A stretch of 63,762 nucleotides of DNA, counting the filler, from Octopus bimaculoides (taxonomy: Eukaryota), in the NCBI RefSeq assembly GCF_001194135.2. It is 8 parts of 7 records of this genome, joined end to end, with 100 filler letters (N's around TTAATTAATTAA, not from the genome) between each part and the next. Parts side by side here need not be neighbours in the genome. Positions count along the whole stretch, not along the records: positions 1 to 10,188 come from NC_068984.1; positions 10,289 to 17,297 come from NW_026312448.1; positions 17,398 to 22,950 come from NC_068986.1; positions 23,051 to 33,648 come from NC_068988.1; positions 33,749 to 37,929 come from NC_069008.1; positions 38,030 to 53,950 come from NC_068984.1; positions 54,051 to 61,274 come from NC_068996.1; 1 more part is not named here. The stretch is one strand, 5' to 3'. This document shows positions 4,275 through 60,690 of this stretch, piece by piece. A model generated the notes under the pieces. The model searched no databases, was not told where the DNA came from, and worked only from the letters and a program-made list of their open reading frames with translations. The number at the start of each line of letters is the position of its first letter. Position 1 is the stretch's first letter. The translations under genes were made by a program, and so were the position numbers.

Positions 4275-4755
4275 AATGAGGCAGCTAGTTAGCAGAGTTT
4301 TACCAAAAAGGGAAACAATGAATGTCATTAAATATGACTGAGGATGTTAGAACACCTACACTGCTAGAAATAAGAGCTGAAGGGCTCTGTTGCTGTTATC
4401 AATGCACATAAAATTATATACATACATGCTGGCAGCGAGTGTAGGTGGTCGGAATGTGGCGATCATGATATCTCTTTGCAGTACGGTTTCAGCTTTAGGC
4501 TGAGGCACCATCAGAAGGGTCGCCGGAGATTGCCAGTTTTCAGACAACCCAGCTACAAGCATATATGTTTACTGCATAAAAGTTCATGGATGATTTAGCA
4601 AATCGCTAATGTGTATACAATTGATTGAATGAGGCAGCTAGTTGTGTAGAGTGTCACCAAAAAAGGAAAACAATAAATGTGATTAAATATGACTGAGGGT
4701 GTTACAACACCTATGATAGAAATAAAAGCTAAAGGGCTTTGTTGCTGCTGTCAAT
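4275..4755 (-). mobile_element. Penelope-like/retrozyme-like remnant: two ~128-bp direct repeats (4275-4403, 4628-4755) around a hammerhead-like vestige
   Basis: Direct repeats AATGAGGCAGCTAGTT...TCAAT with 353-bp period, flanked by (TA)n. Minus-strand CTGATGG...GCTGAAACCGTACTGC at 4478-4520. Class is inference. Confidence 0.45.
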
Positions 4756-4950
4756 ATATATATATACATATATATATATATATATATATANNNNNNNNNN
4801 NNNNNNNNNNNNNNNNNNNNNNNNNNNNNNNNNNNNNNNNNNNNNNNNNNNNNNNNNNNNNNNNNNNNNNNNNNNNNNNNNNNNNNNNNNNNNNNNNNNN
4901 NNNNNNNNNNNNNNNNNNNNNNNNNNNNNNNNNNNNNNNNNNTATATATA

Positions 4951-5312
4951 TCATCATCATCATCATCATCGTTTAATGTCTGCTTTCCATACTAGCATGG
5001 GTTGGATGGTTTGACTGAGGACTGGCAAACCGGATGGCTGCACCAGGCTCCAGTCTGATCTGGCAGAGTTTCTACAGCTGGATGTCCTTCCTAACGCCAA
5101 CCACTCCGAGTGTGTAGTGGGTGCTTTTACGTGCCACCGGCACAAGGGCCAGTCTGGCAGTACTAGCAACAGCCACGCTCAAATGGTGTTTTTTACGTGC
5201 CACTTGCATAGGAGTCAGTCCAGTGGCACTGACAACGACCTCGGTCGAATGTTTTGTTCATGTGCCACCGGCACAAGTGCCAGTAAGGTGACGCCTGCAC
5301 GAGAGCCGGTCC
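4951..5312 (-). mobile_element. RTE-related SINE-like repeat (same family as 1-240)
   Basis: High reverse-complement identity to 60-240, plus internal GTGCCACCGGCAC repeats. Confidence 0.75.
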
Positions 5313-6690
5313 AGAATACTTTATGTGTGTTTGTGTGTGTGCGTGTGTGTTTGTGTGTGCGTGTGTGCATGTGTGTGCATATATGTGTGAGTGTGTGCAA
5401 GTGCATGCTCATGTGTATGTTTTTTGTGATCATCCCCATCAATATTTAACATTCTGTCTGCATGCTCAGATGGTTTGGATGGGTCCATAGCATCAGACAA
5501 GCTGGTGAACCACATTCAGCTTCAATGTCTGTTTTGGTCACATTTCATTGACCAAATGAACTTCCTAATTCCAACCACTTTCTAGGGTGTGCTGGGTGCT
5601 TTTTTTTTGTCATGACATCAGCACCAGTGAGATTGCTTTACAACAAAAAAGAAGAGCCTAAAGGGCTCTCTACAATAGAAAGAGCATAAGTGAGAGACGG
5701 AGAGAGGGTGATGATTTTTAAGCAAGGTAATGTGAGAGAGTAGGATATGATGAGAAGAACATATTGATGGTTGTGAGAGGGTGACTGTAGAGAAAGTAAC
5801 AGAGCAGACACTATCCAACTTCTATACCAGCATGGAAGATGGTCATTAAACGATGATGAAGAGGAGGAGGAGAAGGATGATATGCACAGACATTTGTTCA
5901 CTTTTTCATACCTGCATGGAATCGGTTGGGGCAGATTTTCTGCAGCTGTATGTCCTTCCTATCCCAAACACTCACTTGTTTTCAAGCAAGACAATATTTT
6001 CTCATGGCTGAACATATCCTCACAGAAAATTAGATTTTACACCATTTGTATACTGGAGGCACACACAATCTCTTAATCAACCAAAACTAAATGCTTTTGA
6101 TTTCCGTGCCATTTCATTCTATTTCATATTAATTCATTTCACCCAATAATGCTCAGTATTCCCCTAAATAGAACTACCAGAGAATTATGCAATTAAATTA
6201 GATATACAAATTAACTTTATGTATTAATGGGTTTATTATAAATGTTACCAGTTTACTTAATGAACATCCCAAAAGTCTTATACCTATCTAAAATATCAGT
6301 AATGTTGTTTTGCAGATTCATTAATTCACAGTATAGTTTTGTTATATTTAGATTTGTTTTCAATTAATTTTGCAAAGTTCACACTCAACTGATAAAGATG
6401 AGTGATTAAGGAAATTAAACCATATACAAGGTGAACAATGTTGTTGTTGCTGTTTAAATGGAGCAAGTTTCTACCAAGTTTCTATTTGGTTTCAACTCCT
6501 AGTTGTAGTTATTTACACTAAGTTTATATTGCTAACAGCCTTAGATTACATCTTCTGTTGTTAATATTGATAACACAAATTATATTGCTAACATTCTTAG
6601 TTTATACTGAATTATTGCTAATATTACAAACACCCTTACCTTATAATGTCATATTGCTAATGTTAGCTTATGTTGAAGTGTTGCTGATTT

Positions 6691-7504
6691 TACTCTTTTA
6701 CTCTTTTACTCTTTTACTTGTTTCAGTCATTTGACTGCGGCCATGCTGAAGCACCGCCTCTAGTCGAGCAAATTGACCCCATGACTTATTCTTTGTAAGC
6801 CTAGTACTTATTCTATCAGTCTCTTTTTGCCGAACCGCCAAGTTACGGGTACGTAAACACACCAGCATCGGTTGTCAAGTGATGTTGTGGGAACAAACAC
6901 AGACACACACACACACACACATATATATATACATATACATATATACGACAGGCTTCTTTCAGTTTCCATNNNNNNNNNNNNNNNNNNNNNNNNNNNNNNN
7001 NNNNNNNNNNNNNNNNNNNNNNNNNNNNNNNNNNNNNNNNNNNNNNNNNNNNNNNNNNNNNNNNNNNNNNNNNNNNNNNNNNNNNNNNNNNNNNNNNNNN
7101 NNNNNNNNNNNNNNNNNNNNNNNNNNNNNNNNNNNNNNNNNNNNNNNNNNNNNNNNNNNNNNNNNNNNNNNNNNNNNNNNNNNNNNNNNNNNNNNNNNNN
7201 NNNNNNNNNNNNNNNNNNNNNNNNNNNNNNNNNNNNNNNNNNNNNNNNNNNNNNNNNNNNNNNNNNNNNNNNNNNNNNNNNNNNNNNNNTATATATATAT
7301 ATATATTATATATATATATATATACACACACATATATACGACGGGCTTCTTTCAGTTTCTGTCTACCAAATCCACTCACAAGGCTTTGGTCAGCCCGAGG
7401 CTATAGTAGAAGACACTTGCCCAAGGTGCCACGCAGTGGGACTGAACCCAGAACCATGTGGTTGGCAAGCAAGCTACTTACCACACAGCCACTCCTATGC
7501 CTAT
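6691..7504 (-). mobile_element. tRNA-derived SINE (octopus OR-type, CORE-like) with internal TA/CA microsatellite and assembly gap
   Basis: Minus strand head GGAGTGGCTGTGTGGTAAGTAGCTTGC...GGTTCTGGGTTCAGTCCC (A/B boxes), then GGCACCTTGGGCAAGTGTC. The 3' half ends (GTAAAAGA)n. Many copies in the window. Confidence 0.85.
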
Positions 7505-58503: not shown

Positions 58504-58929
58504 TCCTTTGTATTTTTGCTGTTATTTTTTGGATTTAAAATTTATTCTTTCACCTCAACCACGAGCTGGCATATACAGGTGCTTACAATTGTCAAGTATT
58601 ACCTCTATATATATATAAATATACAGACTGACAGACACACGGACAAACAAGCAAGCAGACTGAGAGATGGTTGAGAGAAAGTGGGTTCGTGATGGAAAGT
58701 ATGAAATTGCTGCAAAGACAGAAATGAGAGAAATAAAAAGAAAATTTATCGATCAAGAACAAGGGAAAACCCAGAGATATGAGTGGATAAACTGAGAGAA
58801 GGGCGACAAGTCATTGCAGAAGGATAGATTGATAGACACACAGACAGACAGACAAGTAAACAAATAAATAAATAGATAGATAGATAGATAGATAGATAGA
58901 TAGATAGATAGATAGATAGATAGACACAG

Positions 58930-59222
58930 AGAGAGGGAGAAGAATATATATAGAGAGAGAGGAATATAGAGAGGGAGAGGAATATATAGAGAGGGAGAGC
59001 AATATAGAGAGAGGGAGAGGAATATAGAGAGAGGGAGAGGAATATAGAGAGAGGAAGAGGAATATATAGAGAGGGAGAGGAATATAGAGAGAGGGAGAGG
59101 AATATATAGAGAGGGAGAAGAATATATATATAGAGAGAGGAATATAGAGAGATGGAGAGGAATATAGAGAGAGGGAGAGGAATATAGAGAGAGGGAGAGG
59201 AATATAGAGAGAGGGGAGGTAG
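58930..59222. repeat. Minisatellite (GAGAGGGAGAGGAATATA[TA])n, ~20-22-bp unit
   Basis: About 13 tandem units visible. Confidence 0.9.
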
Positions 59223-60629
59223 AGTTCCACTGTCAGTCATATTATTGAGGAAAGAGAATCAGTCAGACAGTGGTATTGTAGTTGTATGAGAGAGAGAAAG
59301 ACAGAGAGCGAGAGAAAGAGAGACAGACAGAAAGAAAGAAGGGGGAGGGGGGAGAAGGAGACGTATGTAATAGGAGAAAAATGAGGTTAAGGTGTATGAA
59401 GGTGAGAGCGTGAGAAAAAAGTTAAAACAATAAGAAAAAAATATGACACTTTGAAGAGTTATATGTTCAAACGTTCATACATACCAACATAGACAACAAT
59501 CACACGCATAGTCACACATGAGGCGAACACACACATACACCGCTCTCACGCATACATACATACACACACACATACATACATACATACATACATACATACA
59601 TACATACATAATATATATATANNNNNNNNNNNNNNNNNNNNNNNNNNNNNNNNNNNNNNNNNNNNNNNNNNNNNNNNNNNNNNNNNNNNNNNNNNNNNNN
59701 NNNNNNNNNNNNNNNNNNNNNNNNNNNNNNNNNNNNNNNNNNNNNNNNNNNNNNNNNNNNNNNNNNNNNNNNNNNNNNNNNNNNNNNNNNNNNNNNNNNN
59801 NNNNNNNNNNNNNNNNNNNNNNNNNNNNNNNNNNNNNNNNNNNNNNNNNNNNNNNNNNNNNNNNNNNNNNNNNNNNNNNNNNNNNNNNNNNNNNNNNNNN
59901 NNNNNNNNNNNNNNNNNNNNNNNNNNNNNNNNNNNNNNNNNNNNNNNNNNNNNNNNNNNNNNNNNNNNNNNNNNNNNNNNNNNNNNNNNNNNNNNNNNNN
60001 NNNNNNNNNNNNNNNNNNNNNNNNNNNNNNNNNNNNNNNNNNNNNNNNNNNNNNNNNNNNNNNNNNNNNNNNNNNNNNNNNNNNNNNNNNNNNNNNNNNN
60101 NNNNNNNNNNNNNNNNNNNNNNNNNNNNNNNNNNNNNNNNNNNNNNNNNNNNNNNNNNNNNNNNNNNNNNNNNNNNNNNNNNNNNNNNNNNNNNNNNNNN
60201 NNNNNNNNNNNNNNNNNNNNNNNNNNNNNNNNNNNNNNNNNNNNNNNNNNNNNNNNNNNNNNNNNNNNNNNNNNNNNNNNNNNNNNNNNNNNNNNNNNNN
60301 NNNNNNNNNNNNNNNNNNNNNNNNNNNNNNNNNNNNNNNNNNNNNNNNNNNNNNNNNNNNNNNNNNNNNNNNNNNNNNNNNNNNNNNNNNNNNNNNNNNN
60401 NNNNNNNNNNNNNNNNNNNNNNNNNNNNNNNNNNNNNNNNNNNNNNNNNNNNNNNNNNNNNNNNNNNNNNNNNNNNNNNNNNNNNNNNNNNNNNNNNNNN
60501 NNNNNNNNNNNNNNNNNNNNNNNNNNNNNNNNNNNNNNNNNNNNNNNNNNNNNNNNNNNNNNNNNNNNNNNNNNNNNNNNNNNNATATATATATATATTC
60601 TGTTTATTTATATATATTTTTGGGACAAT

Positions 60630-60690
60630 ATTGTGCTGATGAACGAAGTCTAGATTCATTCTTGTAATCGCGAAATCGTCGATACACAAT
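60630..60690 (+). ncRNA. Minimal type I hammerhead ribozyme
   Basis: ATTGTG-CTGATGA-ACGA-(21 nt)-TCGC-GAAATCGTCGATA|CACAAT. Stem I is 6 perfect bp; stem III is ATC/GAT; AUA triplet. Predicted cleavage after 60684. Confidence 0.75.

Follow-up and report, generated by a model that had tools for sequence, protein, structure and literature searches.

Five hammerhead-like motifs had been predicted in a joined stretch of 63,762 nucleotides (filler included) of the Octopus bimaculoides genome, here called the window, and were read as members of unrelated families of Penelope-like (PLE) or retrozyme elements, the four best of them lacking G10.1-C11.1, a usual although non-obligatory trait of type I hammerheads. 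The locus raises the question whether these motifs are genuine hammerheads, whether they are separate in origin, and whether their unusual 10.1-11.1 letters are a property of the families or the outcome of decay.

Results

Hammerhead motifs in the window and their chance expectation

To obtain an inventory of the motifs and their parts (Table 1), we screened the window with descriptors of different stringency. The strict descriptor demanded an intact core, at least four Watson-Crick pairs in stem I and at least three pairs in stem II from 10.2 onwards, leaving 10.1-11.1 free. It was satisfied by three of the five motifs (M3, M4 and M5), compared with a mean of 0.008 matches in global and 0.004 in 400-nt local dinucleotide shuffles; none of the 250 shuffles of either set held three or more matches, and the reversed window gave no match to this descriptor. 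The prediction had been staked on a comparison with shuffled sequence, and the strict motif density indeed lies far above it. When stem II was left free and 1.1-2.1 could be mismatched, the search yielded five matches (~0.1 expected), among them those at 9716 (M2) and 31247, and the core-only descriptor yielded nine (2.7-3.2 expected), this being the only one that M1 passes. The type I core (C3-U4-G5-A6-N7-G8-A9, G12-A13-A14, A15.1-U16.1, H17) is intact in M2-M5 and broken in M1, and the pairing of stems I and II on either side of it exceeds the chance level in M3, M4 and M5, not in M1 and M2. Letters and coordinates of all five motifs were right; three of the five, M3-M5, are real hammerhead motifs.

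A scan tolerating one core mismatch found nothing in the window beyond M3-M5. The relaxed-scan matches at 31247 (+) and 58660 (+) consist of AT-rich or microsatellite pairing and were both discarded, the former being judged a chance match. Rfam recognised no family in the whole window at the gathering score and, by E-value, no hammerhead model at M4 and M5; the 150 of 249 E-value matches listed for the window were only microsatellite matches to miRNA models.

Table 1. Hammerhead motifs, their parts and associated repeats, in positions of the window (C3-H17, span from C3 to H17).
Feature	Position	Strand	Description
M1, core-like letters only	4478-4520	-	C3-H17 4514-4482; CUGAUGG, G at position 9; no stem I
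M2, likely decayed hammerhead	9709-9778	+	C3-H17 9716-9770; intact core
M2 stem III		+	perfect palindrome ACAGCUGU
M3, type I hammerhead	38434-38518	-	C3-H17 38514-38438; strict descriptor; likely M4-related
M3 core	38514-38508	-	CUGAGGA
M3 U10.1, U11.1	38507, 38450	-	
M3 stems I and basal II		-	4 bp and 3 bp
M3 stem III		-	imperfect palindrome ACGAUAGU
Inverted repeat around M3 and a TA run	38336-38574 (38336-38381 / 38529-38574)		46 bp, 93% identical
M4, best type I hammerhead	58431-58503	+	C3-H17 58439-58495; strict descriptor; fold z -2.75; double-hammerhead co-fold
M4 stem I	58431-58438/58496-58503	+	8 bp
M4 core	58439-58445	+	CUGAAGA
M4 U10.1, U11.1	58446, 58483	+	
M4 stem II		+	12 uninterrupted pairs starting at 10.2, nine of them Watson-Crick
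M4 GAAA	58484-58487	+	
M4 stem III	58487-58494	+	palindrome ACACGUGU
M4 predicted cut	58495	+	after A17
Multi-copy repeat bearing M4	58305-58604	+	window copy 5'-truncated, terminates at TA run
M5, type I hammerhead	60630-60690	+	C3-H17 60636-60684; strict descriptor; in 200-bp TA-bounded island
M5 core	60636-60642	+	CUGAUGA
M5 A10.1, C11.1	60643, 60671	+	
M5 stems I and II		+	6 bp and 3 bp
M5 stem III		+	odd palindrome AUCGUCGAU

As predicted, none of the four intact-core motifs carries G10.1-C11.1, the 10.1/11.1 letters being G/U in M2, U/U in M3 and M4 and A/C in M5. An extra nucleotide after A9 as the source of a register shift was rejected, the best register of M3, M4 and M5 having zero offset with the base of stem II still unpaired. 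The description of the stem III segments as tiny and mostly palindromic was also correct, and their self-duplex energies are -11.1 (M2), -10.3 (M4) and -7.3 kcal/mol (M5), with a weak -0.5 kcal/mol for M3. Likewise, the three copies said to lie in TA-flanked islands do so, the islands measuring 171 bp (M3), 323 bp (M4, with a gap at one side) and 200 bp (M5), under a threshold picked after the fact by which 14.8% of the window bases fall in such islands.

U10.1·U11.1 is the majority form of the M4 family

The repeat bearing M4 aligned with 809 and 548 contigs from two DNA runs, of which 389 and 279 are less than 95% alike, and the contigs of the family continue upstream of 58305. Among the 40 of 48 family variants listed, none falls at U10.1, U11.1 or the core, and U10.1·U11.1 is for this reason the majority form of the family rather than decay; a return to G10.1-C11.1, which would have spoken for decayed variants, was not seen among them. 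Listed variant places number 0 in the 48 nt of core, stems I and III and basal stem II versus 34 in 181 nt of flank (Fisher p 3e-4), a depletion that holds for the 40 of 48 variants listed and would vanish (p 0.84) if all other eight lay in the core. For run X15 all 26 variant places are listed, with none at 58446 or 58483 despite record 2 differing at 18 letters, and for run X19 all nine T-changes are listed, again with none at either position. Since the remaining eight of the 48 variants include a single T>G and a single T>C per DNA run, the family may contain a minority G-C subfamily.

Two copies of M4 co-fold as a classic double hammerhead at -50.3 kcal/mol, compared with -37.4 kcal/mol for two monomers. 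No head-to-tail or go-back joint of the family was found in four runs, where the stretch compared may be shorter than one unit, and the self-pairing of the 300-nt M4 element is not unusual (z -0.79). In two runs guessed to be RNA, 9 and 24 contigs lie over M4, some spanning the cut site, which speaks for presence only and says nothing of strand, transcript ends or expression level. Contig ends at 58474 and 58503 were considered as cleavage products and rejected, because with a 30-nt overlap they look like assembly-graph branch points.

M3 is a probable relative of M4

The claim that the motifs share nothing but core letters failed for one pair. The non-core similarity of M3 and M4 was matched by 3 of 2000 shuffles, a modest figure given that this was one of ten motif pairs tested; the other nine were not significant, M2 having been parsed one base off in this test. 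Of the first 19 nucleotides of stem II, 15 are identical in M3 and M4, and stem I and tail sequence are also alike. Moreover, the two differ by compensatory swaps (A-U for G-C in stem I, U-A for A-U at 10.2-11.2) with U·U kept in both. Judged by sequence, M3 and M4 likely share a lineage, and U·U is likely a family trait at M3 as well. M3 itself is likely decayed, in that its predicted lowest-energy fold buries the core; in neither M3 nor M5 does the hammerhead appear in the lowest-energy fold or in the co-fold. The inverted repeat surrounding M3 resembles the layout of inverted truncated copies in PLE insertions.

M2, M5 and M1

In M2, G10.1·U11.1 is followed by an A·C mismatch, leaving no basal stem II, and an A·A stands at 1.1-2.1. 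A single C>T change at the C11.1-G12 CpG separates this G·U from G-C, and stem II of M2 is broken as well; for M5, a single G>A change separates the A·C from a canonical stem of 4 bp. Each of the two motifs is a single copy that lies one transition off, and its letters may represent decay from G-C. M1 is a relic or a chance match; as a type III hammerhead it gave no fit by eye. It sits between direct repeats of ~150 bp (4271-4427 and 4624-4773, 82% identity, period 353).

Discussion

Taken together, M3-M5 are type I hammerhead motifs in short repeats bounded by TA, which are probably solo, 5'-truncated terminal repeats of PLEs or of retrozymes derived from them, with U10.1·U11.1 as the majority form of the M4 family. 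In a tandem transcript, the ACACGUGU segments of two M4 copies would join as an 8-bp helix III and thus form a double hammerhead, the minimal palindromic helix III and the M4 co-fold permitting this geometry, and the long stem II likely compensates for the U·U mismatch. Reportedly, Lunse, Weinberg and Breaker described PLE-associated hammerheads cleaving as dimers. The double hammerhead is predicted to cut after GUA and free a unit-length element RNA which, by analogy with published PLE and retrozyme biology, might serve a PLE RT/GIY-YIG protein as template for reverse transcription and insertion at (TA)n. Insertions would mostly be truncated solo copies that decay without a partner, and M2 and M1 are likely decayed copies of such elements. 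The traits found (a multi-copy, 5'-truncated M4, TA islands at M3-M5 and an inverted repeat at M3) include the TA-bounded islands and 46-bp inverted repeat that fit PLE insertions, and these support the PLE reading. We infer the PLE link, since a Pfam scan of 239 of the 372 filtered stop-to-stop frames of the window revealed no RT, GIY-YIG or host gene and a word-based homologue search with a 53-aa frame beside M3, a weak test, gave no RT or GIY-YIG match; truncated copies are expected to have no PLE ORF in the window, where a remote PLE relic may nevertheless be present. The original prediction of a PLE or retrozyme population thus holds in that real type I motifs lie in interspersed repeats of that type, although not all are separate families.

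Published work derives retrozymes from the terminal repeats of PLEs, and for this reason the PLE reading overlaps with the proposal that M3 and M4 represent a genuine non-LTR retrozyme family, with tandem 170-400 nt units elsewhere that are transcribed, self-cleaved and circularised, as in axolotl Rtz_353 (HHR_Amex2), and with solo monomers in the window. The family resembles Amex2 in its U·U at the helix II base and in a helix III of 2 bp plus tetraloop, retrozyme families often include solo monomers, Pfam finds no ORF nearby and M1 lies within a 353-bp partial tandem, but the lack of joints in the four runs (again over a stretch maybe below one unit), the ordinary self-pairing of the M4 element and the inverted, not tandem, surroundings of M3 make this unlikely. 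Still less likely is that the 10.1-11.1 pair, made unnecessary by a host factor or dimer geometry for instance, was relaxed in this lineage across several unrelated families (U·U, A·C, G·U): none of the four intact-core motifs has G-C and U·U prevails in the M4 family, yet M3 and M4, which carry the U·U, probably share a lineage, and M2 and M5 are the single, one-change copies noted above. Of the predicted relaxed closing pair, a family trait at M4 and likely at M3 is supported and a general relaxation is not, only U·U being found at family level.

That the window copies are co-opted ribozymes cutting host introns or transcripts co-transcriptionally is highly improbable. M4 is structurally intact and covered by contigs of the putative RNA runs (presence only), but solo copies with a stem III of 2-3 bp are reported as inactive or weak monomers, the motifs lie on both strands with no host gene by Pfam, and M4 is one of many copies of a mobile family, not a unique locus. 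Chance matching in AT-rich, repeat-rich DNA is the least credible reading of all: about three core-only matches per shuffled window mean that M1 and 31247 could be chance, but the strict descriptor separates the window from both shuffle sets and from its reverse, and M4 is conserved at family level. Chance is refuted for M3-M5 by the shuffles and holds only for M1.

The text of Cervera and De la Pena 2014 (PMC4209133) describes hammerheads in PLE pseudo-LTRs, with palindromic helix III variants in Drosophila, rotifers, shrimp and mosquito, a long helix II, heterogeneous families of mostly single copies, a highly conserved G10.1-C11.1 and an extra nucleotide after A9. The window motifs are like these metazoan hammerheads in their type I form, tiny palindromic helix III suiting dimers, long helix II, helix I of 4-8 bp and many heterogeneous families per genome, mainly as single dispersed copies, and unlike them in the U·U of M3 and M4, with no extra nucleotide in that register, and in having no PLE ORF beside the copies. 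(TA)n-targeting PLE clades, present for example in Hydra and also in molluscs, are described by Craig et al. 2021 (PMC8557442) in passages on their terminal-repeat hammerhead, 5' truncation and inverted adjacent copies; the TA runs at the window hammerheads, the 5' truncation of M4 and the inverted repeat at M3 are like these.

U10.1·U11.1 hammerheads are already known in other organisms, and the window case is an ordinary new example. In the text on axolotl Rtz_353 (Cervera and De la Pena 2020, PMC7229834), HHR_Amex2 numbers ~60,000 copies with a U·U mismatch where helix II has its base and with a short helix III. It cleaves 22% in 1 h as a monomer and far better as a dimer; its 350-bp repeats are arranged in tandem, and their circular RNAs have been demonstrated. 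M3 and M4 share with it the short helix III and the U·U, taken from the wording of that text to be 10.1-11.1, whereas the window copies are solo and their helix II is longer. Perreault et al. 2011 (PMC3088659) likewise report, in the sections concerned, a natural hammerhead with stem II starting U10.1-U11.1, the best tolerated mispair (citing Ruffner 1990), and weak palindromic stems III as common in hammerheads. M3 and M4 share this stem II start, the contexts named for that variant in the legend of figure S6 being phage or bacterial. Our own scans for the U·U motif gave no match in viral contigs and two in metagenome contigs, both without stem I and judged chance.

M4 adds a high-copy invertebrate case of a U10.1·U11.1 hammerhead, which is of modest importance and opens no new mechanism. 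More speculatively, and rather doubtfully, a large mobile hammerhead superfamily in Octopus bimaculoides might, separately from the axolotl case, have made U10.1·U11.1 a fixed trait of its diverged subfamilies and give rise to abundant circular RNAs from tandem copies; if true, this superfamily escapes every descriptor demanding a paired 10.1-11.1. Among the main texts of the literature listed on octopus and cephalopod hammerheads, none dealt with U·U hammerheads of cephalopods. The search filter described in Perreault 2011 (PMC3088659) rejects a mispair at 10.1-11.1, and because Rfam models and such mispair-rejecting searches miss whole families, the number of ribozymes in genomes of this kind is probably underestimated. 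For the giant squid, the passage on ribozymes in the genome paper gives no more than a count of 235 Rfam Hammerhead_1 loci.

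Hammerhead motifs and their excess over chance

By sequence and structure, M3, M4 and M5 of the five motifs (M1-M5 in window order, counted from C3 to H17) belong to the hammerhead class. Using a strict descriptor that leaves the 10.1-11.1 pair (the closing pair at the base of stem II) free, we found these three in the window, while shuffled controls yielded means of 0.008 and 0.004 matches, with three matches in 0 of 250 shuffles of each set, and the reversed window yielded none. M2 was recovered by a looser descriptor alone (5 matches vs ~0.1 in shuffles) and M1 solely at a level where shuffles yield ~3 matches. 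From these comparisons, of the five hammerheads in the original prediction, whose sequence letters were correct on re-reading, M3-M5 are solid, M2 is likely a relic and M1 is doubtful. Judged from the sequence, the G·U pair of M2 may derive from a single C>T step at the C11.1-G12 CpG, CpG decay being a source of C>T change, and the A·C pair of M5 from a single G>A step in a canonical 4-bp stem.

Motifs and other features of the window (positions along the window)
Feature	Position	Strand	Description
M1	4514-4482	-	A9 replaced by G; without stem I
M2	9716-9770	+	core intact, palindrome perfect, but A·A at 1.1-2.1 and basal stem II absent
M3	38514-38438	-	stem I 4 bp; U·U at 10.1-11.1; 3 basal stem II pairs
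M4	58439-58495	+	stem I 8 bp; core intact; U10.1·U11.1; stem II 12 contiguous pairs; palindrome ACACGUGU
M5	60636-60684	+	stem I 6 bp; A10.1·C11.1; stem II 3 pairs
Possible sixth motif, heavily decayed	53659	-	GAAA, then palindrome ACAAUUGU and A; upstream half degenerate
Direct repeats around M1	4271-4773		two of ~150 bp, 82% identity, period 353, between TA runs; 1.4-unit tandem of retrozyme-like size
Hairpin	58364-58412	+	10 bp, shortly upstream of M4, within the same repeat
Depth rise	58474-58511	+	summed depth up 5- to 8-fold across 3' half of M4, both DNA runs
Pyrimidine tract	60735-60752	+	terminal AG, soon after M5; splice-acceptor-like by eye
Zinc-finger-like remnant	60915-61236	+	C2H2, below Pfam cut-off, shortly downstream of M5 island; likely 3' end of a LINE
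SINE-like copies	9420-9600, 6761-6934, 17407-17608, 25515-25677, 27370-27543		one shortly upstream of M2
Frames near (TAA)n runs	19939-20433	-	
Fragments near (TAA)n runs	~12788-13800, 11243-11705, 36893-37365		

The U·U pair in the M4 repeat family

U·U is a genuine trait of the M4 repeat family. Four public sequencing runs were aligned to 58284-58604 at an 80% likeness threshold, and their contigs showed neither tandem nor circular joints. Two DNA runs from different studies gave 809 and 548 matching contigs, about half of them less than 95% alike, which makes the repeat a family of many copies that falls into subfamilies. Depth over it does not equal copy number. Because the family sequence extends upstream beyond 58305, the copy in the window is a truncated one. 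Among the 40 of 48 variant entries listed (places counted at at least 4%), no variant fell in 58432-58452 or 58461-58511 and three fell in the distal part of stem II or in the loop; the most frequent of the three, 58453 G>A, converts G·U to A-U. The same 40 entries place 0 variants in the core plus basal stems (48 nt) vs 34 in the flanks (181 nt) (Fisher p 3e-4), a depletion that would disappear if the remaining 8 all fell in the core; they also hold none in the last 30 nt, though several were expected there. All 26 variant places of run X15 and all T-changes of run X19 are among those listed, so U10.1 and U11.1 are invariant there, and both are retained even by a contig that differs at 18 letters. 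Since each DNA run has one T>G and one T>C outside the 40 listed, a minor G-C subfamily is possible. A consensus restoring G-C was not found, which upholds for M4 the proposal of a non-G-C closing pair as a family feature. The depth rise across the 3' half of M4 reflects more abundant other subfamilies with the same 3' half, including U11.1, and a different loop II and tail.

The motifs had been thought unrelated outside the core, a view that fails for M3 and M4: their non-core similarity was attained by 3 of 2000 shuffles and is the only significant one among 10 pairs compared. They share 15 of 19 nucleotides at the start of stem II, and their T-rich tails can be aligned. Compensatory changes distinguish the two in stem I (A-U vs G-C) and at 10.2-11.2 (U-A vs A-U), with U·U retained in both. 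Furthermore, subfamilies with a longer loop II appear as loose contig ends at 58474, and by eye this loop resembles loop II of M3.

Comparison with known hammerheads and proposed mechanism

Animal genomes are described as carrying thousands of heterogeneous, mostly single hammerheads each, from terminal repeats of Penelope-like elements (PLEs), with palindromic helix III and weak, dimer-dependent activity (Cervera and De la Pena 2014, PMC4209133). M3 and M4 carry U·U where G10.1-C11.1 is termed highly conserved in that description. U10.1-U11.1 is reported as a natural and best tolerated mispair (Perreault 2011, PMC3088659), and the account of axolotl HHR_Amex2 (~60,000 copies, cleaving and circle-forming) gives it a U·U at the helix II base, like that of the M4 family (Cervera and De la Pena 2020, PMC7229834). 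The pair is an already published variant, and the M4 family a further member of a known hammerhead class. Because retrozymes (hammerhead-bearing retroelements) are argued to stem from PLE terminal repeats, often as solo monomers (Li, Clavereau and Pollet 2026, 10.64898/2026.07.22.740005), the PLE and retrozyme labels of the original prediction are close. The repeat annotation of Octopus vulgaris lists 31 recently active Penelope-like families, ribozymes being unmentioned in that part of the source (PMC13282606).

PLE membership of the motifs is likely. As proposed, M3-M5 lie within TA-flanked islands of 171-323 bp, with TA runs or a gap as edges (background 14.8%). PLE insertions are described as including inverted adjacent, 5'-shortened copies, an arrangement that fits the 46-bp inverted repeat flanking M3. 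Loose contig ends suggest a further inverted match to the upstream part of the M4 family; the M4-bearing element is not unusually self-paired. No linked protein was found among the 239 of 372 filtered stop-to-stop frames of the window scanned (116 near motifs, 123 elsewhere with at least 60 aa), where Pfam gave no RT or GIY-YIG match and, for any family, none at a curated cut-off.

Two M4 strands are predicted to co-fold into the classic double hammerhead, in which helix III spans 8 bp and both cores are open (-50.3 kcal/mol vs -37.4 for two monomers), while other folds are predicted to be preferred for M2, M3 and M5. Alongside the observed motif, family conservation and computed fold, we infer transcription, cleavage and PLE protein action: two M4 copies in a tandem element transcript would pair via the palindrome and self-cut after GUA, freeing unit RNA; a PLE protein would then put this RNA back at (TA)n, chiefly in the form of solitary truncated ends. 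The published role in tandem-transcript processing is most likely that of M4.

Other features of the window

The frames and fragments near (TAA)n runs resemble the end of a LINE of R4/Dong type that encodes its C-terminal restriction-like endonuclease, a label that sequence searches of Pfam and PDB did not support. Overall, the window consists of AT-rich animal DNA, is dense in microsatellites and includes 6,560 N. It holds an abundant SINE-like family, possibly of cephalopod type, of ~180 bp with CA/TA-run ends and copies 81-84% alike.
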